Shown: positions 1 to 11,469, counted from the stretch's first letter. The stretch: DNA of 11,469 nt from a virus (IMGVR_UViG_2695420644_000002), one strand, 5' to 3'. Numbers and translations: made by a program. The notes: a model not told the origin generated them from the letters alone.

Positions 1-1
1 G

Positions 2-154
2 GAAGCCTTCTCCGGACGCTCACAGGCTATCCGGGAAGCCGTCGGGGAAGACGCCTCGCTGAAATCCCGGGATGTGGCGGCACTGGATACGCGTAAATCC
101 AAACAGCACGTCGATCCTGAAGTCAGAATGGCTGAATGGATGCAGACGCTGTGA
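2..154 (+). CDS. 3' end of an unidentified ORF (partial, runs off the window start)
   Basis: Frame 2 is open from base 2 and translates [50 protein letters not shown] with TGA at 152-154. GC-rich third codon positions look coding. Product not recognised; a 50-codon open frame is not strongly significant by itself. Confidence 0.3.
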
Positions 155-393
155 GCAAGGTCACGGAAATCGTTACCAGTAATCCAGGCGATATAGAAAA
201 GTGTGTCGCCTTTTTTCACGGTATAGGTACTGCCGCTATAACTGCCTTTCGGAATGTTCCCATACTGACGGTTATAGACGATGCGTCCGTTTTCCATCTG
301 TACCGGCTGCTGAGCTACTGGCTGCACTGGCTGGATTTGCGGTTGTTGAGTAGCCTGAATTTGTGGCTGCTGTACCGGCTGAATTTGCGGTTG
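154..393 (-). CDS. nlpD: NlpD (LysM-domain murein hydrolase activator lipoprotein), internal fragment
   Basis: Minus-strand translation gives ...[80 protein letters not shown]: the Q/P-rich repeat tract followed by the LysM motif of E. coli NlpD. The match stops at both ends (N run at 396-398; divergence after DLA near 153). Confidence 0.8.
300..393 (-). repeat. Imperfect tandem repeats encoding the QPQIQPV tract inside the nlpD fragment
   Basis: Repeated units such as ctggatttgcggttg / ctgaatttgcggttg / ctgaatttgtggctg on the plus strand. This is a native feature of nlpD, not a separate element. Confidence 0.6.
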
Positions 394-400
394 CTNNNCG

Positions 401-1006
401 AATATGCTCGCGCTTAACCACTTGCATAAAACCGATATTGGCGCGCTCCGGAAAACGCTCGTGGCTTTCCAGAACAGGACCAAGCGTTTCTACCGCCGCG
501 GTATCGACATCATCGACCTGAATCACGCAATGCGGATTTCCCATCGACACCACGCCGCATAAGATTGTCTGCTCGGCGGCGCGCATAATATAGGTCTTTT
601 CCGCTTTGTTAGCGCGAAACGGCACGGCGGAAGGTTCGAAGTTGGGTTCGCCCATATTTACGCGGACCAGATCATCATCGGTGACGGTCAGAACCATCCG
701 CCCGTTGGCGGTGCTGACGCGGATATCACGCTTATTGGTCAGTCCTTTCAGACGCACAAAACGGGCAAAGCAGCGCGCACCGTTGCCGCACTGCGCCACT
801 TCACTGCCATCAGCATTGAAAATGCGATAGTGAAAATCCAGTTCAGGATCATACGGCGGCTCAACCACCAGCAGTTGGTCAAACCCTACCCCCAGGTGCC
901 GATCAGCCAGGCGACGAATCAGCTCCGGTGAAAAAAAGACATTCTGCGTTACCGCGTCGACGACCATAAAATCGTTGCCAAGGCCATGCATTTTCGAGAA
1001 CTGCAT
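401..1006 (-). CDS. dapF: Diaminopimelate epimerase DapF, 5' end intact, 3'-truncated at the N run
   Basis: Translation [80 protein letters not shown]...[10 protein letters not shown] matches E. coli DapF over about 200 residues. GGAG lies 6 nt upstream of the ATG at 1006. The frame runs into NNN at 396-398 and the sequence beyond is nlpD. Confidence 0.9.
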
Positions 1007-1042
1007 CATTTACTCCAATCACGCGGGTACAGAAACTGACTT

Positions 1043-1246
1043 TTAGTAATTCACCTGGGATGGACCATCGCCAGTGGCGCGATCGTTTTTATCCGGCACC
1101 GTGGATTGCGTTTGCGTCTCTACCGGTTTGGTCGGCGGCGGTGCGTTTTTATCTGCAGGCGGGAAATAGAGCGGACCTTTCAGACCGCAGCCCGTCAGGC
1201 TGAAGAGAGTAAGTAATACAGTGAGTGCCTTAAACACGTTTTTCAT
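1043..1246 (-). CDS. yifL: Small lipoprotein YifL
   Basis: 67-aa ORF MKNVFKALTVLLTLFSLTGCGLKGPLYFPP... with a lipobox (LTGC) and a Pro/Thr-rich tail, lying immediately upstream of dapF as in the E. coli yifL-dapF operon. Confidence 0.85.
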   Translation of the reverse strand: MKNVFKALTVLLTLFSLTGCGLKGPLYFPPADKNAPPPTKPVETQTQSTVPDKNDRATGDGPSQVNY

Positions 1247-1524
1247 TATGGATTGCCTGTAAAGTTCATCGCTTTCTGCTTTCTATCATCGCAGGAGAAG
1301 ACGTAAAAGCAAGCGTTTAGCGACTCTTTATGAAGTCTGAAAAGTGAGGAAATGCTGCGAGTATAACGCTTACTCGTGGGGATTTATGTTTTGCTGGTAG
1401 TTTCGTGATCGGCACCTCGCGCCAGGATGGCTTTATGCACTATCGCAATGTGGTTTGTTTGTTGTCTTTTTTAGTTCCGTCAGCGTGAGGATGCTCGCTC
1501 GGTAAACCTGATCATAATGTNNAN

Positions 1525-1677
1525 AAACGCTTGCTGTTGCCAGAACGGCAGTTCTCCGCCGCTTTCGTCACTGCTATTGAACGGCGAGTTGACGACATTG
1601 AGCGAGTCACCGCGTTTTTCAGAAAAGCCCATCGCCTCGCGGGTCAGATCTTCAATTTGCTTCATCTGTTCGTTGCT
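1525..1677 (-). CDS. fliF: Flagellar M-ring protein FliF, short internal fragment
   Basis: Minus-strand translation PLSNMKQIEDLTREAMGFSEKRGDSLNVVNSPFNSSDESGGELPFWQQQAF resembles the C-terminal region of enterobacterial FliF. Bounded by the N run at 1521-1524 and an in-frame stop at 1678-1680 that would not be present in an intact gene. Confidence 0.55.
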
Positions 1678-1680
1678 GAG

Positions 1681-2067
1681 AGGCTACGTGATGCAGATGC
1701 ACTGGTGGAAAAATCAATCTGGCTGATTGGTGGTGATGGCTGGGCTTACGATATCGGCTTTGGCGGTCTGGATCATGTATTGAGTTTGACGGAAAACGTC
1801 AACATTCTGGTGCTGGATACGCAATGCTATTCCAACACCGGTGGTCAGGCGTCGAAAGCGACACCGCTGGGTGCAGTAACTAAATTTGGCGAGCACGGCA
1901 AACGTAAAGCGCGTAAAGATCTTGGCGTCAGTATGATGATGTACGGTCATGTTTATGTGGCGCAGATTTCTCTCGGCGCGCAGCTGAACCAGACGGTGAA
2001 AGCGATTCAGGAAGCGGAAGCGTATCCGGGGCCATCGCTGATCATTGCTTATAGCCCGTGTGAAGAG
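1681..2067 (+). CDS. ydbK: Pyruvate:flavodoxin/ferredoxin oxidoreductase (PFOR), TPP-binding domain fragment
   Basis: Translation [98 protein letters not shown]...[12 protein letters not shown] carries the GDGW...YSNTGGQ thiamine-diphosphate motif region of PFOR. Only about 129 codons of a protein over 1100 aa are present, flanked by unrelated sequence. Confidence 0.7.
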
Positions 2068-3039
2068 TACTTTGGTCTGCTGTGAACCCAGGGTGATGAT
2101 GGTGGTATAGATCGCGCTGGAGAAGAAGCCCAGAGCGAGAATTGACCACGCCATATGTGCTGGTGTTCCGGTGTTAAAGACGTACATCAGAATCGCAGCC
2201 AGACCAGCCAGTACGGTCAGAATGCGTTGCAAATCAAAGAAGCGAAGAATAAAGCTGAACGCCCACATGCCGACCATGTATGACATCCAGAAGTTACTCA
2301 CCAGCGTGCCCGCGTCGTTCAGGCTCATGCCCAGGCCTTTGGCATACTCAGGCACCCAGGAGATAAAACCTAACTGACCGAGGATGTAGCACAACGCCGC
2401 AACAGAGAGAAACAGTACGCCGATCCCCCACTTTTCTTTCTCTACCGGAGCATCCGTTTTTGGCGCATGTTTGCCCAGCGCCGGGAACTCACAGCCGAAG
2501 GTCAGAATAAAAATAGCGACATCCACCAGCCCGATGCAGGCATAAACCCAGTACCACTCAATGCTGCGCGCCAGTAGAAACGCGGCGATCATTGGGAAAA
2601 TCATCCCAGCCATACTGAAGAAGGAGTCGGTAAATAACAGGCGGGAACCGCGCTGACGCCCTTCATACATTTGTGTTACCAGGAATGTACCAATCGACAT
2701 GGTGATGCCGCTGACCACCCCGAGAATGAACATCGCCGCCGAGAACAGCGCCAGGCTGTGGCTGAACATCAAACCGGCAACCGCCAGCACCATCAGGAGA
2801 AAGCCAAAACGTAACTGCGTTTTCAACGGGACGATTTCCATCAGCCAGGCGTTGAGGAAGATAGAGATTAAAATGCCGGCGTTGAGGAAGGTGAAGGTAT
2901 TACTCATACTGGAAACAGGCAGATTGAAATAATCGGCGATATTTCCCATCACCATCCCGGTGACAATAACCAACGCACCAGTCAGTGCGTAGGAGAGAAA
3001 GCTAATCCATGTGAGCTTGATGCGATTGCTGTTAGTCAT
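2068..3039 (-). CDS. tsgA: MFS transporter TsgA, 5' end intact, 3'-truncated
   Basis: Translation [44 protein letters not shown]...[16 protein letters not shown] matches E. coli TsgA for about 324 residues. The remainder of the computed 441-aa ORF is antisense to the ydbK fragment, so the gene is cut near 2067. Confidence 0.85.
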
Positions 3040-3691
3040 GATTGGCCTGCGTTCAAAAATAAAATGGCATAGCGGGATATGCCGCGAGCGGGCGATTTTA
3101 GGTGATTTTGTGATCTGTTTAAATGTTTTATTGCAATCGGTTGCTAAATTGCATTTTAAGAGTGGTGCCTCCAGGTGACGTTAACCAGTTAACAATTAAC
3201 GCCGGATACAGAGAATCCACCCATAACACTGTTTTTGGTTTTAACTGTTCCGCGTGCGCTCAGCCGCATTCACCACATCACAAAATTCACTTTAAAAAGG
3301 GCGGCAGAGCAGTCACGGAGTAAAACTGATACCGCCAAACGTCACCAGAAAATTGATAACAGAGGGCGTTGCAGCGGGGTTGTCACTTAAGCGTATGGTC
3401 AACCTGACAACCCGGTGTCCTCAACGGGGAANGNNTAACCCCGCCATACTTACCGCCGCGCCATTTCGCGGGTTGCCACAACCGGAAGCGCACGGTCGAC
3501 GAAAATTTAACGACAGGCTATCTATGAACCAGCTACCTCGCCGTGCGCTTTCGCGTTATGGTCTGACTTTTCAGGGAAATATCCTTTCAGTAAACTGTCA
3601 GTTCCGGATGCGCACCCGTGTCCGGCGCACGCACTCCACCTCACCCGTGGAGAACTCCTTAATTACTAACCTTAGCTTTGTTGATTAGCTA

Positions 3692-3910
3692 CTAACGCGG
3701 GTATGTAATCATTCTGGCAATGCTTAATGCCGCTGCTTTTTCCAGATTGGTGATATCCTGCTCCAGAGCGGACAGATTTTCAGCCTGCTTAGCCCTGGCT
3801 TCATTAGCCCATTTCAGATCCTGCGCTGCATTAATTTTCTGGCGCATCCACTCATAAAGTTCATCATCGGTATAGTCTGGCGCGATGATGACGGGTTCTC
3901 GTTTCTGCAT
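3692..3910 (-). CDS. Hypothetical prophage small protein (72 aa), predicted helical C-terminal half
   Basis: ATG at 3910 preceded by GAGGAA 7 nt upstream; product MQKREPVIIAPDYTDDELYEWMRQKINAAQDLKWANEARAKQAENLSALEQDITNLEKAAALSIARMITYPR. Last gene of a leftward three-gene string downstream of the repressor. Function not recognised; a size similarity to Rac KilR (73 aa) is only a coincidence-level hint. Confidence 0.55.
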   Translation of the reverse strand: MQKREPVIIAPDYTDDELYEWMRQKINAAQDLKWANEARAKQAENLSALEQDITNLEKAAALSIARMITYPR

Positions 3911-3939
3911 ACTGATTCCTCGCGGTGCTGTTTCGCTTA

Positions 3940-4068
3940 TCAGCCGTTAGATTTTGCCGAACTGGAAAGCGCCTGTTTAAACTCACTGAAGCTGAGAGCT
4001 TCTTCGCCTTCGGCAAGGCCTTCGAAGTATTCTTCGTAAGCCTTTTCCATGATTGTGTCGAAATCCAT
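3940..4068 (-). CDS. Hypothetical prophage small acidic protein (42 aa)
   Basis: Not in the supplied ORF track (below its length cutoff). ATG at 4068 with AGGTGAG 6-7 nt upstream and TGA at 3940-3942; product MDFDTIMEKAYEEYFEGLAEGEEALSFSEFKQALSSSAKSNG (10 acidic vs 3 basic residues). Starts 1 nt after the stop of the upstream ORF. Confidence 0.45.
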   Translation of the reverse strand: MDFDTIMEKAYEEYFEGLAEGEEALSFSEFKQALSSSAKSNG

Positions 4069-4069
4069 A

Positions 4070-4225
4070 TCACTCACCTGAGTTTCTTTCCAGCCAGCGA
4101 CGGGCACCATTTTCGGTTTTAAACGTTTTGCTTTTGGTATACGTCATTGCGGTGAACGTGCCGTCCTGGTTTGGAAACACGCCGTACACCAGAGATTCGT
4201 TGTTGCCAAGATCGATAGTATCCAT
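4070..4225 (-). CDS. Hypothetical prophage small protein (51 aa), Rac ydaF/ydaG-neighbourhood type
   Basis: Likely start is the ATG at 4225 with GAGG 5-8 nt upstream, giving MDTIDLGNNESLVYGVFPNQDGTFTAMTYTKSKTFKTENGARRWLERNSGE. The track ORF 4070..4303 begins at a TTG and is probably an over-extension. Confidence 0.5.
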   Translation of the reverse strand: MDTIDLGNNESLVYGVFPNQDGTFTAMTYTKSKTFKTENGARRWLERNSGE

Positions 4226-4303
4226 GCTGACCTCATTTCCCCTTAACGCTGGGGTAGCGGAACTGTTTGCTGAGAACACCGTGCGGTGTGTTGATGCAAA
4301 CAA

Positions 4304-4400
4304 GATTAGCCATGACTAACATATCGGTCAAGTGATTTTGTATGCTATAGCTAACATAATTGATGTGGTAAAAGATAACTCATTGATGATGTTATCTTTT
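4304..4400. promoter_or_regulatory. Operator/promoter-like region between the repressor gene and the leftward small ORFs (OL/PL-like), with a 10-bp inverted repeat over the repressor stop codon
   Basis: ATGACTAACA at 4312-4321 recurs at 4858-4867 on the other side of the repressor; GATTAGC at 4304-4310; TAGCTAACA at 4348-4356. Perfect inverted repeat AAAAGATAAC (4370-4379) / GTTATCTTTT (4391-4400) with an 11-nt loop. Possible leftward -35 TTGACC (minus strand, 4331..4326) and weak -10 TAATCT (4308..4303). Confidence 0.35.
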
Positions 4401-4799
4401 ATTTGTCCGCTGACGGGCTTTTAGTAATTCTTCAAAGAGTTTATTGAAGTTTTTTACTCGAGCTCGCATTTCGGCGAGCTGGGTATCCTGTTCTGATTCT
4501 GGCAGTGCATTAAACAGCTCAAGGAGCTCTAGTTCTTTGGGGGATAAGGCAACTGGCTTCTCAACAGGTGGTGTTGGTTGCTTGTCTTCATCGCCAAATA
4601 GAATCCATGTTGGTGAGCATTGCAATACTTTGCTGAGGGCAAAAAGGTTCTTCCCTGTAGGTTCACTATCACCCCGTTCCCATTGTGATACAGACACATG
4701 GGAGATTTTCAGGGCTTTAGCAAGAGACCTTTGGGTGTGTTTGAGGTTTTTCCGACGATACCTGATGCGTTCGCCGATAGTTAAATTTTTTGTTTCCAT
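4392..4799 (-). CDS. Prophage repressor, HTH XRE/cI-like (RacR-like), no peptidase domain
   Basis: 135-aa product METKNLTIGERIRYRRKNLKHTQRSLAKALKISHVSVSQWERGDSEPTGKNLFALSKVLQCSPTWILFGDE... shows the classic phage-repressor HTH signature (Q-x-x-V-S-x-WE-x-G...L-x-C-S-P-x-W-I/L). Divergent from a Cro-like gene across an 83-bp intergenic region containing palindromes. Confidence 0.8.
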   Translation of the reverse strand: METKNLTIGERIRYRRKNLKHTQRSLAKALKISHVSVSQWERGDSEPTGKNLFALSKVLQCSPTWILFGDEDKQPTPPVEKPVALSPKELELLELFNALPESEQDTQLAEMRARVKNFNKLFEELLKARQRTNKR

Positions 4800-4882
4800 A
4801 GTTAGCTAATGCTAAATCGTATTGACTATGTTTTTGTTAACATCTATCTTGTTAGTTATGACTAACAATAAAGGTGTTTTAA
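4800..4882. promoter_or_regulatory. Divergent promoter/operator region between the repressor and the Cro-like gene (OR-like)
   Basis: Candidate rightward sigma70 promoter: -35 TTGACT 4822-4827, 17-bp spacer, -10 TATCTT 4845-4850, then AAGGTG 6 nt before the ATG at 4883. Perfect inverted repeat TTGTTAG-N6-CTAACAA at 4849-4868 overlaps the -10. Palindrome TTAGCTAA at 4802-4809 abuts the repressor start codon. Confidence 0.5.
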
Positions 4883-5113
4883 ATGCTTAAAACTGACGCT
4901 CTTTTGTATTTCGGTTCAAAAACAAAACTTGCACAAGCAGCAGGTATTCGTTTGGCTTCGCTTTATAGCTGGAAAGGGGATTTAGTTCCCGAAGGTCGCG
5001 CGATGCGTCTACAGGAGGCATCTGGCGGGGAGCTTCAGTATGATCCCAAAGTTTATGATGAATATCGTAAGACGAAGCGGGCGGGGCGGTTGAACAATGA
5101 AAATCACTCCTGA
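4883..5113 (+). CDS. YdaS-family Cro-like HTH protein
   Basis: 76-aa product MLKTDALLYFGSKTKLAQAAGIRLASLYSWKGDLVPEGRAMRLQEASGGELQYDPKVY... fits the YdaS/Cro-like pattern (KLA..G.....L..W......P...A..L......GG.L). First rightward gene opposite the repressor, with an AAGGTG RBS. Confidence 0.65.
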   Translation: MLKTDALLYFGSKTKLAQAAGIRLASLYSWKGDLVPEGRAMRLQEASGGELQYDPKVYDEYRKTKRAGRLNNENHS

Positions 5114-5618
5114 ACAGGCTCGTGAGGCTCTGGATGCCTGGATATGTCGACCAGGAATGACACAGGAGCAGGCGACGATATTAATCACTGAAGCATTCTG
5201 GGCTTTGAAAGAGCGCCCGAACATCGATGTTCAGCGTGTCACATATGAAGGTGGCGCGATTGATCAGCGAGCGCTTGGCGTTAATCGAGTGAAGATATTT
5301 GAACGCTGGAAGGCTATCGACACCAGGGATAAGCGTGAAAAGTTCACGGCGCTAGTGCCTGCAATTATGGAGGCTATCCGGATTAATGATTTCAGGTTGT
5401 ATCGTGAAATTACTGACGGAAAAAGCATCACGTGCATGATCGCCGGGTTAAACAAAGAATATGGCGATGTGGTGGAGTCCGGACTGCTTTTTGCTGATCC
5501 TGCCGTAGTGGATCGTGAAACTGACGAACTTATAGAAAAAGCAATTGCTTTCAAACTTGCGTATCGACAGCAATACCAACAAAAAGCTGGATGGAATTAT
5601 GAGCCTTCTTTTTGCTGA
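5097..5618 (+). CDS. YdaT-family protein (prophage cII-position regulator, reported toxic on ectopic expression in Rac)
   Basis: 173-aa product MKITPEQAREALDAWICRPGMTQEQATILITEAF...VKIFERWKAIDTRDKREKFTALVPAIMEAI... aligns with my recollection of K-12 YdaT (MKI...W..P.G...KIF.RW....LLPAI). Overlaps the preceding gene by 17 nt and the next by 20 nt. Confidence 0.6.
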   Translation: MKITPEQAREALDAWICRPGMTQEQATILITEAFWALKERPNIDVQRVTYEGGAIDQRALGVNRVKIFERWKAIDTRDKREKFTALVPAIMEAIRINDFRLYREITDGKSITCMIAGLNKEYGDVVESGLLFADPAVVDRETDELIEKAIAFKLAYRQQYQQKAGWNYEPSFC

Positions 5619-6203
5619 ACGCCCACTGGTTATAAACACGCAGCTGGCAATGAAAATTGGCTTAAACGAAGCCATTGTTTTGCAACAACTGCACTACTGG
5701 TTGAGAGATACCAACTCCGGCATGGAATGTGATGGTGTTCGCTGGATTTATAACACAACGGAACAATGGCTGGAACAGTTCCCATTCTGGTCAGAGTCAA
5801 CGTTAAAGCGCGCGTTTGCAAGTCTGAAAACGCTGGGGCTTTTGCGTTGTGAAAAGCTCAATAAATCAAAGCGCGATATGACCAATTTCTACACGATCAA
5901 CTATGGGAGCGAGCTTTTAGATGGTGGCAAATTGAGCGAATCCATCGGTTCAAAATGCGCCGCTCCATCAGGTCAAAATGACACGATGGAAGAGGTCAAA
6001 ATGAAACGCTCCATTGGTTCAAAACGACCCAATGTCATCGGGTCAAAATGGCCTGATGATCTTACAGAGAATACAACAGAGATTACTACAGAGAATAAAA
6101 ACACTTTTCGTCCGGAAGCTTCGCAACCGGACCCGCAGACGACTGAACAGGATTTTTTAACCCGGAACTCCGACGCGGTTGTGTTTAGTGCGAAAAAACG
6201 CCA
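5599..6203 (+). CDS. Lambda O-like replication initiator (Rac ydaU position), 3'-truncated at N 6204
   Basis: Probable start ATG 5599: MSLLFAERPLVINTQLAMKIGLNEAIVLQQLHYWLRDTNSG...LKTLGLLRCEK..., an N-terminal winged-helix-like domain followed by a low-complexity linker encoded by the iteron array (repeated IGSK motifs). The track ORF starts further upstream at 5545. The frame continues into unrelated terminase sequence after the N at 6204. Confidence 0.6.
5941..6099. repeat. Iteron array: five direct repeats at 23-24 bp spacing plus three 12-bp repeats (candidate prophage replication origin inside the O-like gene)
   Basis: Core TCAAAATG at 5950-5957, 5973-5980, 5996-6003 and 6043-6050, with variant TCAAAACG at 6019-6026; unit consensus about tccatcGGTyCAAAATGac. 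Followed by ACAGAGA(A/T)TA repeats at 6064, 6076 and 6088 in a 68% AT stretch. Confidence 0.6.
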
Positions 6204-6205
6204 NA

Positions 6206-6592
6206 GGGGCATCCGTCTACGGAAAGCCTGTGGCCAGCATGCCACGTAAGCGAAACAAAAACGGGGTTTACCTTACCGAAATTGGTACGGATACCGCGAA
6301 AGAGCAGATTTATAACCGCTTCACACTGACGCCGGAAGGGGATGAACCGCTTCCCGGTGCCGTTCACTTCCCGAATAACCCGGATATTTTTGATCTGACC
6401 GAAGCGCAGCAGCTGACTGCTGAAGAGCAGGTCGAAAAATGGGTGGATGGCAGGAAAAAAATACTGTGGGACAGCAAAAAGCGACGCAATGAGGCGCTCG
6501 ACTGCTTCGTTTATGCGCTGGCGGCGCTGCGCATCAGTATTTCCCGCTGGCAGCTGGATCTCAGTGCACTGCTGGCGAGCCTGCAGGAAGAG
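6206..6592 (+). CDS. Lambda-type terminase large subunit (gpA-like), C-terminal fragment
   Basis: Translation ...KPVASMPRKRNKNGVYLTEIGTDTAKEQIYNRFTLTPEGDEPLPGAVHFPNNPDIFDLTEAQQLTAEEQVEKWVDGRKKILWDSKKRRNEALDCFVYALAALRISISRWQLDLSALLASLQEE matches the C-terminal region of phage lambda terminase large subunit as I recall it. Bounded by N at 6204 and NN at 6594-6595, so it lacks both its N-terminal ATPase part and its last ~25 codons. Confidence 0.8.
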
Positions 6593-6595
6593 ANN

Positions 6596-7255
6596 GCCAT
6601 GCTCGACTATCCGGAAGTGGTCGTGCGCTTAACGCTGTGGTGTATCGTTGTTGGCCTCTATCCAACCTTGCTGATGACGTTAATCGGCGTGCTGTGGTTT
6701 CCCAGTCGTGCCATTTCGCAAATGCATCAGGCGCTTAATGATCGGCTTGATGATGCCATTAGTCACCTGACAGACAGCCTCGCACCGCTACCCGAAACGC
6801 GGATTGAAAGAGAGGCGCTGGCGCTACAAAAACTCAATGTCTTTTGCCTCGCGGACGATGCCAACTGGCGAACTCAAAACGCATGGTGGCAAAGCTGCGT
6901 GGCAACGGTAACCTACATTTACTCGACGCTGAATCGCTACGATCCCACCTCTTTTGCTGATTCTCAGGCAATTATTGAATTCCGACAAAAATTAGCTTCA
7001 GAAATCAACAAGCTGCAGCATGCCGTTGCTGAAGGTCAGTGCTGGCAAAGCGACTGGCGGATCAGTGAAAGTGAAGCGATGGCGGCACGGGAATGTAACC
7101 TGGAGAATATCTGCCAGACGTTGTTACAACTGGGTCAGATGGACCCGAATACGCCGCCAACGCCCGCAGCCAAACCGCCATCAATGGCCGCCGATGCTTT
7201 TACCAATCCAGACTATATGCGCTACGCGGTAAAAACGCTGCTCGCCTGTTTGATC
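6596..7255 (+). CDS. FUSC-family (fusaric acid resistance / aromatic acid exporter-like) inner membrane protein, internal fragment
   Basis: Translation AMLDYPEVVVRLTLWCIVVGLYPTLLMTLIGVLWFP...PDYMRYAVKTLLACLI: a hydrophobic segment, a long soluble linker, then the characteristic start of the second membrane domain. Which E. coli paralogue is not determinable from memory. Confidence 0.55.
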
Positions 7256-7258
7256 NGT

Positions 7259-7873
7259 TGCGCCGTAGCCCTGTACCACGTTCAGCACGCCCGCCGGAAT
7301 ACCGGCTTCCAGCGCCAGCTCACCCAGGCGGTCAGCGGTCAGCGGGGAGAGTTCTGACATCTTCAGCACCGCAGTATTGCCCAGCGCAAGACACGGCGCG
7401 ACCTTCCATGTGGCGGTCATAAACGGCACGTTCCACGGCGATACCAGCGCACAAACGCCTACCGGTTGCACCAGCGTGTAGTTGAGCATCTTGTCGTCAA
7501 CCGGATAGGTCTTGCCGTTCATCTGCTGGCAGACTTCCGCGAAAAATTCAAAGTTGTGAGAAGCGCGTGGGATCAACACATTTTTGGTCTGATGGATCGG
7601 CAGGCCCGTGTCCGCGGTTTCCATCGCGGCGATCTCAGGCACGTTCTGGTCGATCAGATCGCCCAGACGGCGCATCAGGCGCGCACGCTCTTTCATCGGC
7701 AGATTGGCCCATTTCGGGAACGCCTCTTTCGCTGCCGCTACCGCCTGATTGATCTCCGCTTCACCGCCAGAGGCCACATCCGCCAGCACTTCACCCGTCG
7801 CCGGATTGGTGGTCTGGAAGTAGTCGTTACCTGCAACATTTTTGCCGTTGATCCAATGATTTACTTTTTTCAT
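7259..7873 (-). CDS. hpaE: 5-carboxymethyl-2-hydroxymuconate semialdehyde dehydrogenase HpaE, N-terminal ~205 codons (3'-truncated at N 7256)
   Basis: Translation MKKVNHWINGKNVAGNDYFQTTNPATGEVLADVASGGEAEINQAVAAAKEAFPKWANLPMKERARLMRRLGDLIDQNVPEIAAMETADTGLPIHQTKNV...VVQGYGA matches HpaE of the E. coli 4-hydroxyphenylacetate meta-cleavage operon. GAGGAA RBS; start ATG overlaps the hpaG stop (ATGA at 7870-7873). Confidence 0.9.
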
Positions 7874-9159
7874 TTCGCTGTTTCCTCACTCACAATTCGG
7901 TTCACCAGGCAGCCCACGCCTTCTACTTCCACCACTACTTCATCGCCAGGCACCACGTCAGATAAGCCTTTTGGTGTGCCGGTGGCGATCATGTCGCCCG
8001 GATTCAGGGTCATAAATTCGCTTAAGTAGGCGATCAGGAAGGGCACGCTGAAGATCAGATCGGCGGTGGTGCCTTGCTGGCGTAACTCGCCGTTGACGAA
8101 GGTGCGAAGGGTCAGATTATGCGGGTCCGGGATCGCCTCTTTCGGCACGATGGTTGAAAGCATCGGCGTCAGTCCGTCGCGGCTTTTTACCCGCAGGTTA
8201 GGGCGGTAGTAGTTTTCCAGATAGTCGCGAATGGCGTAGTCGTTACACACGGTGTAGCCCGCGACATAATCCATGGCATCGGCTTCGCTGACGTTACGCG
8301 CCTGTTTGCCAATAACTACCACCAGCTCCGCTTCATAGTGCATGTATTCAATATTGTTTGGACGCACGGAGGTCTGGTTATCGCCAGTGAGGGTATTTGG
8401 CGCTTTCAGGAACACCAGCGGTTCTTCCGGTGGCTTAAATTCCAGTTCGCTGGCGTGGTCGGCGTAGTTCAGGCCGAGGGCAAACAGCGTGCCGTGCGGG
8501 TGTGGCTGCGTTGGGAAGCTCTTGCGCGTGGTCACTTCACGTTCGTCCACTACCGGATTTTCCAGCGGCGGGAAACCTTCTGCGAGAACACGAACGCGAT
8601 CGCCTGGCTGTATTTCCACGCGCGCCTGTGGCGTGCCGAGCAGAATGGCATCGCCTGGATTCAGTGTGGCAAATTCGCTCAGGGCGCTCAGCAACTGCGC
8701 GGCGTTACGTTGTAAATCGGCGGTATTCCAGTGATCGGCAGGACGCCCGTTGATCTCGGTATAGATGGTCAGATTATCGACATTGCTGAGAGCCACGGTT
8801 TCGCCAATGGGGCAGAATCCATCACGACATTTTGCTTTGATTGCCGGGCGGTAAAAGCTCTCTTCCGGCAGGCTGACGTCGTTAGCCAGCGCATATCCGG
8901 CGATGTACTCTGCCGCATCTTCTTCACGTACTTTCGTCGCCGTTTTTCCCACAATCAGCGCAACAGTCGCACCGCTCAGTACCTTTTCACCCTGTGGAAA
9001 GGGAATCGGTTCACCGCAACCAATCACCGTATTGCGCGGTTTAATAAACCAGACCGCAGTTTTAGGCGGGGCTTTGTAGGGGGATTGCTGGAACGCTTCC
9101 TGCCATGCATCAAGTTGGCTGCGATGGTTCAACGCTACGGCGAAGATAGTGCCTTTCAT
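7870..9159 (-). CDS. hpaG: Bifunctional 2-oxo-hept-3-ene-1,7-dioate isomerase / 5-carboxymethyl-2-oxo-hex-3-ene-1,7-dioate decarboxylase HpaG (complete, 429 aa)
   Basis: Translation MKGTIFAVALNHRSQLDAWQEAFQQSPYKAPPKTAVWFIKPRNTVIGCGEPIPFPQGEKVLSGATVALIVGK... with two FAH-like repeats. ATG at 9159 has GAGGAG 5 nt upstream; the track ORF adds two codons from a GTG at 9165. Length matches HpaG. Confidence 0.9.
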   Translation of the reverse strand: MKGTIFAVALNHRSQLDAWQEAFQQSPYKAPPKTAVWFIKPRNTVIGCGEPIPFPQGEKVLSGATVALIVGKTATKVREEDAAEYIAGYALANDVSLPEESFYRPAIKAKCRDGFCPIGETVALSNVDNLTIYTEINGRPADHWNTADLQRNAAQLLSALSEFATLNPGDAILLGTPQARVEIQPGDRVRVLAEGFPPLENPVVDEREVTTRKSFPTQPHPHGTLFALGLNYADHASELEFKPPEEPLVFLKAPNTLTGDNQTSVRPNNIEYMHYEAELVVVIGKQARNVSEADAMDYVAGYTVCNDYAIRDYLENYYRPNLRVKSRDGLTPMLSTIVPKEAIPDPHNLTLRTFVNGELRQQGTTADLIFSVPFLIAYLSEFMTLNPGDMIATGTPKGLSDVVPGDEVVVEVEGVGCLVNRIVSEETAK

Positions 9160-9430
9160 TACCACTCCTCGGATTCGATCATCTTAATCATTAATATGTT
9201 AATGATTACTTTTATTCCCGATTGCGTAGTTTGGCAAAAGTAAGTGATGTAAATGTGATCTAATTAACAAACTATTTACATTTAAGGATAATAAAATATT
9301 AAATATCAGTAAGTTAATAAAATATCATCAATTTTGATAAAATCAGGAATTGCAGGGGCAGCGCAGTCCCGGTAACGTGACGATTAACTGTTTCTATATT
9401 AATGATTTTGAATTTTTCAGGGGAAAGATA
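9160..9430. promoter_or_regulatory. hpaG-hpaR divergent control region: HpaR operator-like palindrome, CRP-like site, AT-rich tract
   Basis: Perfect inverted repeat TAATCATTAA-TATG-TTAATGATTA at 9185-9208 just upstream of hpaG. CRP-like TGTGA-N6-TAACA at 9254-9269 (one mismatch to TGTGA-N6-TCACA). The whole region is strongly AT-rich. Confidence 0.55.
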
Positions 9431-9877
9431 ATGCACGACTCACTAACCATTGCGTTGCTCCAGGCGCGAGAAGCGGCGATGAGTTATTTTCGCCCAATCG
9501 TTAAACGGCATAATTTGACTGAGCAACAGTGGCGCATCGTGCGTATTCTGGCGGAAAGCCCATCAATGGATTTTCACGATCTGGCGTATCGCGCCTGCAT
9601 TTTGCGCCCAAGCCTGACCGGGATCCTCACGCGGATGGAACGCGACGGTTTAGTGTTGCGATTAAAGCCGATCAATGATCAGCGGAAGCTCTATATCTCG
9701 CTGACCAAAGAGGGGCAGGCGCTGTATAACCGCGCCCAGACACAGATTGAAGAAGCCTATCGGCAGATTGAAGCTCAGTTTACTGCCGAGAAAATGCAAC
9801 AGTTAACCCATCTGCTAGAGGAATTTATTGCTCTGGGTAATTCCCGACAAGAAGACATCCCGGGCGATAATGAATAA
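9431..9877 (+). CDS. hpaR: MarR-family repressor HpaR of the homoprotocatechuate (hpa) meta operon (complete, 148 aa)
   Basis: Translation MHDSLTIALLQAREAAMSYFRPIVKRHNLTEQQWRIVRILAESPSMDFHDLAYRACILRPSLTGILTRMERDGLVLRLKPINDQRKLYISLTKEGQALYNRAQ..., a MarR-type winged helix, divergent from hpaG. ATG at 9431 preceded by AGGGGAAAG; the track ORF starting at 9350 is an upstream over-extension. Confidence 0.9.
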   Translation: MHDSLTIALLQAREAAMSYFRPIVKRHNLTEQQWRIVRILAESPSMDFHDLAYRACILRPSLTGILTRMERDGLVLRLKPINDQRKLYISLTKEGQALYNRAQTQIEEAYRQIEAQFTAEKMQQLTHLLEEFIALGNSRQEDIPGDNE

Positions 9878-9904
9878 CTTTTTAGTATCTGATAACCAGC
9901 GCNT

Positions 9905-10861
9905 GAAACATGGCATTACGACTTCCATCATCGGCGCGGAGTGATTGTTGAAGGCGGCAAGATGAGTAACCTTGATGCGATGGATATTACCGCGCCGTAT
10001 ACGCCTGGAGCGCTGCGCGGCGGCAGCCATGTGCATGTCTTTAGCCCGAACGGTGAAAGGGTGAGCTTTACCTATAACGACCATGTAATGCATCAACTCG
10101 ATCCGGCGCTGGATTTGCGAAACGTCGGTGTTGCTGCACCGTTTGGCCCGGTCAATGTACAAAAGCAGCATCCGCGTGAGTACAGTGGTAGCCACTGGTG
10201 CGTGCTGGTGAGTAAAACCACGCCCACGCCGCAGCCAGGCAGTGATGAAATCAATCGTGCTTATGAAGAAGGATGGGTAGGAAATCACACGCTGGCGTTT
10301 ATTGGCGACACACTTTCGCCAAAGGGCGAGAAAGTGCCGGAGCTGTTTATCGTTGAGTTACCGCAAGATGAAGCTGGCTGGAAAGCGGCAGGTGATGCGC
10401 CGTTAAGTGGAACGGAAACCACCCTGCCCGCGCCACCGCGCGGCGTCGTGCAGCGACGTTTAACCTTTACCCACCATCGGGCTTATCCGGGGTTAGTCAA
10501 CGTCCCGCGCCACTGGGTGCGCTGTAATCCGCAGGGTACGCAAATCGCGTTTTTAATGCGTGATGATAACGGCATTGTGCAACTATGGCTTATCTCGCCA
10601 CAGGGCGGCGAGCCGCGCCAGTTAACCCATAACAAAACGGATATTCAGTCTGCATTTAACTGGCATCCATCAGGAGAATGGTTGGGCTTTGTGCTGGATA
10701 ATCGAATTGCTTGTGCCCATGCGCAAAGCGGCGAGGTTGAGTATTTAACCGAAAACCACGCCAATCCGCCTTCTGCGGATGCCGTGGTCTTCTCACCGGA
10801 TGGTCAATGGCTGGCGTGGATGGAAGGTGGCCAGCTGTGGATCACCGAAACTGATCGCTAA
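9905..10861 (+). CDS. yidR: YidR-like DUF3748 beta-propeller protein, 5'-truncated at N 9903
   Basis: Frame is open from 9896 through the N with no plausible start until the internal GTG at 9941 or ATG at 9962. Translation ETWHYDFHHRRGVIVEGGKMSNLDAMDITAPYTPGALRGGSHVHVFSPNGERVSFTYNDH...GQWLAWMEGGQLWITETDR; convergent with yidQ. The yidR symbol is from memory of the K-12 yidQ neighbourhood. Confidence 0.6.
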   Translation, partial: ETWHYDFHHRRGVIVEGGKMSNLDAMDITAPYTPGALRGGSHVHVFSPNGERVSFTYNDHVMHQLDPALDLRNVGVAAPFGPVNVQKQHPREYSGSHWCVLVSKTTPTPQPGSDEINRAYEEGWVGNHTLAFIGDTLSPKGEKVPELFIVELPQDEAGWKAAGDAPLSGTETTLPAPPRGVVQRRLTFTHHRAYPGLVNVPRHWVRCNPQGTQIAFLMRDDNGIVQLWLISPQGGEPRQLTHNKTDIQSAFNWHPSGEWLGFVLDNRIACAHAQSGEVEYLTENHANPPSADAVVFSPDGQWLAWMEGGQLWITETDR

Positions 10862-10862
10862 A

Positions 10863-11195
10863 TCAGTTATCAGGCATTCTGGCCGGTGGAATAACCGCAT
10901 TGGTGGCTTGCGCGTTGGCTTCGCTTTTTTCAACGCGTGAGCGCACCGAGCTGTCTTTGCGGAACACATCCCACGGCAGTAAAAGCGTGTCCATCACAGC
11001 GGTAAACGGCATATCGAGAATCGCCAGCGACTTAGTGCCCCAGTTGGTTTCATCGTCGCCAATCATGGTGGCGCTGGCGCGGGTGCCGGGATACGTTCCT
11101 TCTTTCCCCCCGGTATGGGACATCACGCTGGAGCATCCTCCGAGTAATGTCATTCCGCTGCATATCATGAACGCTAACAACACATTTCTTATCAT
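10863..11195 (-). CDS. yidQ: Outer-membrane lipoprotein YidQ (DUF1375), complete 110 aa
   Basis: Real start is the internal ATG at 11195: MIRNVLLAFMICSGMTLLGGCSSVMSHTGGKEGTYPG... with signal peptide and lipobox (LGGC). The 34-codon N-terminal extension in the track ORF (from 11297) is not supported. Stop codon lies 1 nt from the yidR stop. Confidence 0.8.
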   Translation of the reverse strand: MIRNVLLAFMICSGMTLLGGCSSVMSHTGGKEGTYPGTRASATMIGDDETNWGTKSLAILDMPFTAVMDTLLLPWDVFRKDSSVRSRVEKSEANAQATNAVIPPARMPDN

Positions 11196-11382
11196 AATAA
11201 ATTCATCTGTTGATCGTGGGTGTTGGCCTGATGAGTTATAGCGATCCCTTGCTGAAAATAACATCATCATTACGTCGCTCTGTGGCGGCAATCGCACTTT
11301 AACGTTTCGTGCTGCCCCCTCAGTCTATGCAATAGACCATAAACTGCAAAAAAAAGTCCGCTGATAAGGCTTGAAAAGTTCA

Positions 11383-11469
11383 TTCCAGCCGCTTGTTCAG
11401 TACATGGTAAAGACGCTGAGTTTCAACCTGATAACGTTCAATAGCGTAAGGAATGGTTTGGGGGGCTGC
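11383..11469 (-). CDS. yfcG: GST-like disulfide-bond oxidoreductase YfcG, short internal fragment (29 codons, runs off the window end)
   Basis: Minus-strand translation AAPQTIPYAIERYQVETQRLYHVLNKRLE matches my recollection of an internal YfcG segment, which continues NSPWLGG in the native protein. Here it is followed instead by TGA and the yidQ upstream region, so the gene is cut at about 11383. Confidence 0.55.

Follow-up and report, generated by a model that had tools for sequence, protein, structure and literature searches.

An 11,469-nt contig of a draft Escherichia coli assembly is very probably a technical chimera of 12 fragments

How a single stretch of DNA came to hold pieces of chromosome, F-type plasmid and prophage, 12 in all, is the question raised by the 11,469-nt sequence analyzed here in full, which we call the window. 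The window is the reverse complement of the whole of CCCC01000124.1 (11,469 bp), with identical Ns, and CCCC01000124.1 is a stand-alone contig of the unfinished draft whole-genome shotgun (WGS) E. coli assembly GCA_000937575.1. A preliminary description of the sequence had read it as a mosaic of at least 12 non-adjacent E. coli loci, produced either by an assembly, scaffolding or chimeric-read artifact or by deliberate concatenation, and had cautioned against interpreting gene neighborhoods over the breakpoints. Tiling recovered 12 fragments, and the draft-contig source, the uniqueness of the joins and the absence of recombination signals support an artificial origin. We conclude that the window is very probably a technical chimera, an artifact of some kind rather than a natural arrangement. 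Gene order across the joins is biologically meaningless, and the gene neighborhoods are not interpretable. The artifact may have arisen either in library preparation or in software.

The window was tiled by local BLAST against reference loci, with one HSP per fragment. The 12 fragments are 85 to 3041 nt long and match at 98.2 to 100% identity with E-values of 2e-39 to 0, each collinear with an E. coli locus of its own (Table 1). Judged by these alignments, the matches lie far beyond chance. That genes are cut in mid-ORF was borne out by the annotation tables of the matched loci, which show that 12 genes are interrupted in the window: traI, nlpD, dapF, fliF, ydbK, tsgA, an O-like replication gene, a terminase gene, mdtO, hpaE, yidR and yfcG. 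The opening segment, earlier called an unknown ORF, is plasmid traI, with both ends inside the ORF and matches at 3,225 plasmid places, and the gene earlier called FUSC is mdtO. The hpa locus had been described as absent from K-12, and 2,074 of the 5,426 complete E. coli genomes carry the hpa cluster. The DNA upstream of dapF and lptM in fragment 3 contains a DKNYY pseudogene remnant, and the T-run that adjoins the last join in fragment 11 has one T fewer than its counterparts in the eight best-matching genomes listed.

Table 1. Fragments, internal features and junctions of the window (x/y, join between positions x and y; left and right, source sequences on either side)
Feature	Position	Strand	Match or structure
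Fragment 1: traI internal piece (relaxase/helicase gene, F-type conjugative plasmid)	1-151	+	98.7% to pEC21Z151-89K traI
Join, traI/nlpD	151/152		Blunt, 0 nt common, N-free
Fragment 2: nlpD internal piece	152-395	-	100% to strain CP53 nlpD
Spacer NNN, nlpD/dapF	396-398		Left GGG, right AAA (differ 3/3); T395 and C399 common to both
Fragment 3: dapF/lptM and upstream DNA	399-1520	-	100% to CP53 over 1122 nt; dapF 5' 608 nt (399-1006), 3' 217 nt absent; lptM/yifL intact (1043-1246)
Spacer NNAN, dapF-upstream/fliF	1521-1524		Left TTAC, right CGAT; called A is the sole agreeing position
Fragment 4: fliF internal piece	1525-1684	-	98.2% to MG1655 fliF, reverse orientation
Join, fliF/ydbK	1684/1685		Imperfect 6-nt homology GC[A/T]ACG; N-free
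Fragment 5: ydbK internal piece	1685-2067	+	100% to MG1655 ydbK
Join, ydbK/tsgA	2067/2068		1 nt common (G2067); N-free
Fragment 6: tsgA and 123 nt of upstream intergenic DNA	2068-3162	-	100% to UMNK88; tsgA 5' 973 nt, start codon at 3039, 3' 209 nt absent
Join, tsgA/prophage	3162/3163		Blunt, 0 nt common, N-free
Fragment 7: Qin-type prophage immunity/replication region	3163-6203	mixed	Ungapped alignment to ATCC 8739
DicF RNA	3299-3350	-	76.7 bits
ydfC, ydfB, ydfA			In fragment 7
dicA	4392-4799	-	In fragment 7
dicC	4883-5113	+	In fragment 7
ydaT-family gene	5097-5618	+	In fragment 7
O-like replication gene	cut at 6203		In fragment 7; ~23-nt iterons at 5928-6058
N, O-like gene/terminase gene	6204		Imperfect 7-nt homology A[G/A][T/A]GGGG
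Fragment 8: lambdoid terminase large-subunit gene, internal piece	6205-6593	+	100% to SFE8 and many other strains
Spacer NN, terminase/mdtO	6594-6595		Left AT, right CC (differ 2/2); G6596 common
Fragment 9: mdtO internal piece (FUSC-family efflux permease)	6596-7255	+	100% to strain 720632
N within C-N-GTT, mdtO/hpaE	7256		Left T, right G; C7255 and GTT 7257-7259 common
Fragment 10: hpaE/hpaG/hpaR	7257-9902	mixed	100% over 2646 nt to WP8-S18-CRE-02; hpaE first 617 nt (7257-7873, -), hpaG intact (7870-9159, -), hpaR intact (9431-9877, +), then 25 nt
N, hpaR-downstream DNA/yidR	9903		Left C, right A; TG 9904-9905 common
Fragment 11: yidR/yidQ and upstream DNA	9904-11384	mixed	99.9% to CP53; yidR without first 257 nt (9904-10861, +), yidQ intact (10863-11195, -)
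Join, yidQ-upstream/yfcG	11384/11385		2 nt common (TT), or TTTCCAG with a 1-nt slip; N-free
Fragment 12: yfcG internal piece, to contig end	11385-11469	-	100% to MG1655 yfcG, reverse orientation

The arrangement was found nowhere else. A natural genome carrying the segments contiguously was sought among 5,426 complete E. coli genomes, and in no genome did a single place contain more than one fragment; coverage of the window at one place never reached 80%, and its highest value was 27%, a single fragment. The 40-mer spanning the tsgA/prophage join had no match in three public collections, and the 40-mers of the other four N-free junctions had none in the one public collection searched for each. 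Moreover, a chimeric ORF of 441 amino acids, made of the TsgA N terminus and antisense ydbK, occurs in only one contig among 153 billion gene positions. The source loci lie 0.1 to 3.5 Mb apart within single genomes, for example nlpD at 1.04 Mb, dapF at 4.52 Mb and yidR at 0.015 Mb in CP53, and ydbK at 1.44, fliF at 2.01, yfcG at 2.42 and nlpD at 2.87 Mb in MG1655; one fragment, traI, is plasmid borne. The loci are non-adjacent, as earlier claimed, but two of them are related: the O-like and terminase sides of position 6204 belong to one Qin-type prophage, in which they are collinear and 16.9 kb apart (strain 2014C-3075).

Ten of the 11 breakpoints proposed in the preliminary description were correct to within 7 nt, and the fliF/ydbK break, set at about 1678, is moved by alignment to 1684/1685. 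The exception is 3432-3435, which we reject as a junction. Positions 3163 to 6209 align to ATCC 8739 as a single ungapped 3047-nt match that runs through the site, where the reference reads GGAA in register, and that inside 3163-6203 differs only at three Ns; the true tsgA/prophage join is N-free and lies 270 nt upstream. Positions 3432-3435 read NGNN, an ambiguous consensus call, and fall within the loop of a short hairpin, CGGGG-AAGGAATAA-CCCCG. The surrounding multi-copy stretch matches at 8,957 places across 4,314 genomes, with as many as 8 in a single genome, and the spot itself varies naturally: CFT073 and KKo009 have an extra G there, and SMN013SH2 has G>A at 3432.

The 14 Ns of the window (396-398, 1521-1522, 1524, 3432, 3434-3435, 6204, 6594-6595, 7256 and 9903) were located as first described, but they coincide with six junctions and not with seven. 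Six of the 11 junctions carry one to four Ns and five are N-free. Exact overlap per join is 0 to 4 nt, and the longer homologies are imperfect. The two parental sequences differ at 10 of 10 junction-N positions, with exceptions to the rule of the other kind at 1685 and 6205, where the parents differ and the right-hand base is called. Because the junction Ns fall where the parents disagree, and because the lone off-junction cluster sits on a polymorphic, multi-copy prophage stretch, an N most likely marks conflicting reads. Within 2 to 3 nt of the joins the parents agree at 41 to 45% of positions versus 25% farther off (P of about 0.002 to 0.003), and a run-length test gave P values of 0.01 to 0.06. 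No repeat, IS end, recombination site (such as an att or lox-type site) or target-site duplication was found at any junction, nor do the junctions have a repeat family or motif in common. Rearrangement by a mobile element or site-specific system (IS, transposon, integron or invertase) was rejected, as the fragments abut directly or via one to four Ns with no element between them.

How the fragments were joined is a separate matter. The route that we put first, with about even confidence, is joining in vitro. The source would have been a single E. coli isolate, hpa-positive, other than K-12 and carrying an F-type plasmid and a Qin-type prophage. Its total DNA would have been fragmented, and about twelve unrelated pieces would have been joined end to end during library construction, either through ligation of one fragment to another or through template switching by a polymerase. 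The product, a molecule of about 11.5 kb, would then have been sequenced as a single long template or insert, and reads of the genuine loci would have been used to build or correct its consensus, leaving each fragment essentially error-free. Ns would remain where reads of the two parents, or of paralogous prophage copies, conflicted, and the assembler, unable to place the chimera in its main layout, would have emitted it as a separate contig. Physical joining is favored because the traI/nlpD, ydbK/tsgA and tsgA/prophage joins have 0 to 1 nt of overlap and are N-free, whereas an overlap assembler or scaffolder would need reads spanning them. Several observations count against joining in vitro, however. 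Parental similarity near the joins exceeds the expectation for blunt ligation and fits either annealing-assisted joining or overlap-seeking software; twelve fragments per molecule would be an extreme chimera; and the rule that Ns mark conflicts is imperfect, as at 1685 and 6205.

Alternatively, no chimeric molecule ever existed, and short contigs or read islands with no relation to each other were strung together by an assembler, scaffolder or gap closer, which merged ends on tiny imperfect overlaps and left Ns where the ends disagreed or a near-zero gap remained. We consider such a computational mis-join a serious, if tentative, possibility. It would account for the six of 11 joins that carry one to four Ns exactly at parental disagreements, for the imperfect 5- to 7-nt homologies (GC[A/T]ACG, A[G/A][T/A]GGGG, C[T/G]GTT and slipped TTTCCAG) and for the enrichment of parental similarity within 2 to 3 nt. 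Moreover, the record is a draft WGS contig whose N runs are short, as is typical of scaffolds split at long gaps only, and the 151- and 244-nt fragments are each about as long as a single read. Overlap merging cannot, however, yield the two N-free joins with zero overlap or the one with 1 nt, and a scaffolder would have left a gap. Fragment ends also fall inside single-copy genes, where normally covered contigs do not end, and false pair evidence would have had to arise repeatedly for 12 unrelated loci to be linked. Deliberate or pipeline concatenation, in which leftover contigs or reads were pasted into a "bin" record or the sequence was simulated or synthetic, appears very unlikely. Two blunt, N-free joins and source loci without order or pattern are what pasting might leave. 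Simple pasting is disfavored, however, because it explains neither the inconsistent separators (absent from five joins; N, NN, NNN or NNAN at six), nor the base called inside one spacer, nor the above-chance parental similarity near the joins.

Two further explanations would make the joined DNA biological. Contaminating E. coli DNA might have been concatenated in a eukaryotic cell by NHEJ or MMEJ and co-integrated with a transgene or array, with which microhomology of 0 to 4 nt is compatible; co-integration of E. coli genomic DNA with transgenes is documented, having been reported for 10 of 40 mouse lines (cited in bioRxiv 10.64898/2026.05.15.725597). Even so, this origin is still less probable than pasting. 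The 11.5 kb contain no vector, transgene or non-E. coli sequence, the pieces measure 85 to 3041 nt against documented DH5alpha blocks of 7 to 12 kb, and the donor, which carries hpa and traI and a fliF 98.2% identical to that of MG1655, is no K-12 cloning strain. A clonal, well-covered junction is also hard to reconcile with the Ns at the joins. Least probable of all is genuine rearrangement within E. coli, a chromothripsis-like event in which chromosome, F-type plasmid and prophage would have been shattered into at least 12 fragments, then rejoined by microhomology-assisted, Ku-independent end joining and maintained in the strain. Several joins do show short microhomologies, and a single phylogroup-A-like strain with a plasmid and a prophage could have supplied every fragment. 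It is established, however, that E. coli lacks Ku/LigD NHEJ and that alternative end joining is rare. Moreover, 11 joins would be packed into 11.5 kb, none of them present in the 5,426 complete genomes or the public collections searched, and the ambiguous bases are located at the joins. There is no complete replicon, as the O-like gene is truncated and its iterons therefore form no working origin, and genes such as dapF would be truncated unless second copies exist.

Whichever route produced it, the contig has consequences for databases. Gene callers have already made "proteins" of the joins, and the 441-amino-acid fusion of TsgA with antisense ydbK has been placed in a TsgA cluster of a large protein collection. 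Chimeric ORFs and false neighborhoods can give rise to spurious gene fusions and operon predictions, and can make genes of plasmid, prophage and chromosome appear linked. CCCC01000124.1 deserves flagging, as a matter of data hygiene with no biological import.

The window may be compared with three known kinds of chimera. Like E. coli DNA in eukaryotic transgene concatemers, it consists of non-neighboring pieces end-joined with little or no homology. The documented co-integrated DNA, however, comes as 7- to 12-kb blocks of DH5alpha, a K-12 cloning strain, adjoining vector and host DNA (bioRxiv 10.64898/2026.05.15.725597), whereas the window is made of small non-K-12 scraps with neither vector nor host sequence. 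Chimeras of phi29 multiple displacement amplification (MDA) likewise join non-adjacent sequence with short overlaps, and theirs are made by the polymerase. Most of them are inverted and intramolecular; their chimeric distance is usually below 10 kb, and their overlaps peak at 5 to 8 nt (PMC9984789). We rejected an MDA origin because 10 of the 11 joins link different loci, megabases apart where both neighbors could be placed in one genome, or another replicon; because even the nearest pair is 16.9 kb apart; and because exact overlaps are 0 to 4 nt. Chimeras of draft assemblies, namely ligation chimeras, chimeric long reads and scaffolding or gap-closing errors, differ from the window in its high number of fragments, 12 in 11.5 kb, and in its mixture of blunt N-free and N-containing joins, which no single standard error mode explains in full. 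The window nevertheless resembles them in being a stand-alone short WGS contig, in containing near-perfect copies of distant loci, in its unique, gene-internal joins free of recombination signals, and in its ambiguous bases.

A megablast with the whole window gave matches in every one of 5,426 complete E. coli genomes, in a median of 11 separate places, but none had a single place covering 80% of the window, and the best single place among them covered 27% (3163-6209). Segment-wise searches and local BLAST against fetched reference loci resolved twelve fragments that tile the window, every one a single collinear match to its own locus (see table), and annotation tables showed that the reading frames of twelve genes are cut internally. 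As twelve single collinear matches and twelve genes cut within their reading frames go far beyond chance, we conclude that the mosaic structure is real; it is not a biological feature. The preliminary description had already proposed a mosaic of genes cut mid-ORF and drawn from widely separated loci, and the fragments bear this out. Source loci lie far apart within single genomes, both in CP53 (nlpD at 1.04 Mb, dapF at 4.52 Mb, and yidR at 0.015 Mb) and in MG1655 (ydbK at 1.44 Mb, fliF at 2.01 Mb, yfcG at 2.42 Mb, and nlpD at 2.87 Mb). Moreover, one fragment is plasmid-borne, and the hpa cluster is accessory, being carried by 2,074 of the 5,426 genomes and missing from K-12.

Some details required correction. 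The start of the window, previously called an unknown ORF, is traI, and the fliF/ydbK join, put at about 1678, is located at 1684/1685. The 14 Ns, in nine runs, all lie where they had been reported, but the tsgA/prophage join assigned to those at 3432-3435 does not exist there, as 3163-6209 aligns to ATCC 8739 as a single ungapped stretch of 3,047 nt. The true site is 3162/3163, 270 nt upstream and without an N, and six junctions rather than seven coincide with Ns. We note that upstream of lptM there is a remnant of a DKNYY-family pseudogene (1405-1520); its annotation in strain CP53 is that of a frameshifted, partial gene, and in the window the join at 1520 truncates it.

Fragments of the window with their source loci, and open reading frames that cross joins
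Feature	Coordinates	Strand	Remark
traI of F-type plasmid	1-151		best identity 98.7%
nlpD	152-395		best identity 100%
dapF (5' part), lptM, upstream DNA	399-1520		best identity 100%
fliF	1525-1684		98.2% to MG1655
ydbK	1685-2067		best identity 100%
tsgA (5' part) and 123 nt upstream	2068-3162		best identity 100%
Qin-type prophage, DicF to O-like gene	3163-6203		mismatches to reference are Ns only
terminase large subunit	6205-6593		best identity 100%
mdtO	6596-7255		best identity 100%
hpaE (5' part), hpaG, hpaR	7257-9902		best identity 100%
yidR (3' part), yidQ	9904-11384		best identity 99.9%
yfcG	11385-11469		best identity 100%
TsgA N-terminus fused to antisense ydbK, 441 aa	1714-3039	-	TsgA cluster member in large protein collection
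ORF from terminase fragment through mdtO into antisense hpaE, 372 aa	6239-7357	+	
hpaE fragment into antisense mdtO, 230 aa	7181-7873	-	

The origin of the window was traced through a chimeric reading frame. Gene callers call three ORFs across joins, one of which begins at the native tsgA ATG and continues through antisense ydbK. A look-up among 153 billion gene positions placed that ORF on one contig only, record CCCC01000124.1 (11,469 bp) of NCBI draft assembly GCA_000937575.1. The window is the full-length reverse complement of that record with identical Ns, and thus represents an entire stand-alone contig of a draft assembly. The NCBI copy, consulted for IUPAC codes behind the Ns, also shows plain N. 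No entry was found for a second chimeric ORF (6179-7357) with that start, and a literature search on the accession and neighboring WGS prefixes returned nothing relevant. Protein collections already hold chimeric ORFs from CCCC01000124.1, and the record should be flagged.

The joins themselves are heterogeneous. From the first junction to the last, the fragments are separated by nothing, NNN, NNAN, nothing, nothing, nothing, N, NN, N, N, and nothing, and no repeat, insertion sequence end, or site common to the 11 junctions was found. Exact bases common to both parents, the genuine loci on either side of a join, number 0 to 4. Close to a join (within 2-3 nt), both parents carry the same base at 41-45% of positions, compared with 25% farther away (P of about 0.002-0.003), and a run-length test gave P values of 0.01-0.06; thus, microhomology at the joins is real but weak. 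Imperfect homologies of 5-7 nt occur at several joins (GC[A/T]ACG, A[G/A][T/A]GGGG, and C[T/G]GTT). At 10 of 10 junction Ns, the continuation of the left parent differs from the bases preceding the right parent, and the A of NNAN, the sole called spacer base, is the only position there at which the parents agree. We infer that N marks sites of conflict among the reads used for consensus and that, at junctions, the conflicting reads would be ones overhanging from both genuine parental loci. A fixed 5-nt overlap zone fits the Ns at 395-399, 1520-1524, 7255-7259, and partly 6203-6207 but fails at 6594-6596 and 9903-9905.

Other marks near the joins were considered. Restriction-site or 3C-type ligation was rejected, as no GATC, CATG, CCGG, or AATT is common to the joins. 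Three of 11 left-hand fragments end in or next to AAGAG (GAAGAG at 2062-2067, TAAGAG at 3157-3162, and GAAGAGA at 6587-6593), which forms the core of Illumina adapter AGATCGGAAGAGC; uncorrected for multiple testing, the recurrence has a P of about 0.016. All three ends are native genomic sequence, and we leave the recurrence as a curiosity rather than evidence of adapter-related breakpoints. Where the DNA upstream of yidQ meets yfcG (11380-11388), the T-run reads CATTCCAG versus CATTTCCAG in the eight best-matching genomes listed, one T shorter; either the join truly lies here, with TT microhomology, or a homopolymer error arose at an edge inside the contig where coverage was poor. Separately, the lengths of the first two fragments, exactly 151 nt (a read length standard for Illumina) and 244 nt, may suggest building blocks the size of a read or may be coincidental.

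Taking physical and computational routes together, the mosaic is very probably a technical artifact, as the preliminary description had suggested. A 40-mer across 3162/3163 was absent from species-representative genomes, JGI metagenome contigs, and viral contigs, and 40-mers across the other four N-free junctions were absent from the one of these collections in which each was searched. A purely computational mis-join would be in keeping with the Ns, with the imperfect homologies, and with a record that has the character of a draft scaffold; it is a serious possibility but one we place somewhat below even chances. Against it, joins 151/152 and 3162/3163 are blunt, with zero overlap and no N, and that at 2067 has one common base; an overlap-based assembler or scaffolder would not produce such joins without reads crossing them. 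These joins tip the balance toward a physical chimera made in vitro, read as a long template and then corrected, to which we give about an even chance. Fragments would be joined during library construction by fragment-to-fragment ligation or template switching, the chimeric molecule would be read as one long template, and reads of the genuine loci would then serve to correct its sequence.

Other routes to a mosaic fare worse. In MDA chimeras, the joined parts usually lie less than 10 kb apart, are mostly inverted, and share overlaps mostly of 5-8 nt (PMC9984789), and the joins here depart from those published patterns in distance, orientation, and overlap. Co-integration in a eukaryotic transgene array is documented as 7-12 kb blocks of DH5alpha adjoining vector and host DNA (bioRxiv 10.64898/2026.05.15.725597), whereas the window consists only of small scraps of a non-K-12 strain without foreign sequence. 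Shattering and rejoining in vivo in E. coli is a remote possibility, and nothing specific favors such an event.

The loci are non-adjacent, as had been claimed, but the prophage and terminase fragments come from one Qin-type prophage and are collinear, 16.9 kb apart, in strain 2014C-3075. The join at 6204 (3163-6203 to 6205-6593) is the only one between nearby sequences. Prophage DNA may have been over-represented in the sample, or the pairing may be due to chance (roughly 2% over 11 joins). Mate-pair circularization was rejected for this pair, as the jump is forward (deletion type, 16.9 kb) and a circularized fragment would run backward. Within the prophage fragment, the NGNN at 3432-3435, where ATCC 8739 has GGAA, lies in the loop of a small CGGGG/CCCCG hairpin away from any join. 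The surrounding stretch is multicopy in E. coli (8,957 places in 4,314 genomes), and paralogous prophage copies vary among genomes at exactly these positions, by an extra G or a G-to-A change. Probably, NGNN arose because the consensus was ambiguous across several copies of the prophage in the source strain. The only match in an Rfam scan was DicF (RF00039; 76.7 bits versus a gathering score of 48), a complete antisense small RNA on the minus strand (3299-3350) in its normal place between the dicB side and ydfC, and a normal part of the fragment. Finally, about five tandem iteron-like repeats of about 23 nt (5928-6058; consensus CATCNGGTCAAAATGA...) lie within the truncated O-like replication gene, the usual lambdoid layout in which the origin is embedded in the initiator gene.
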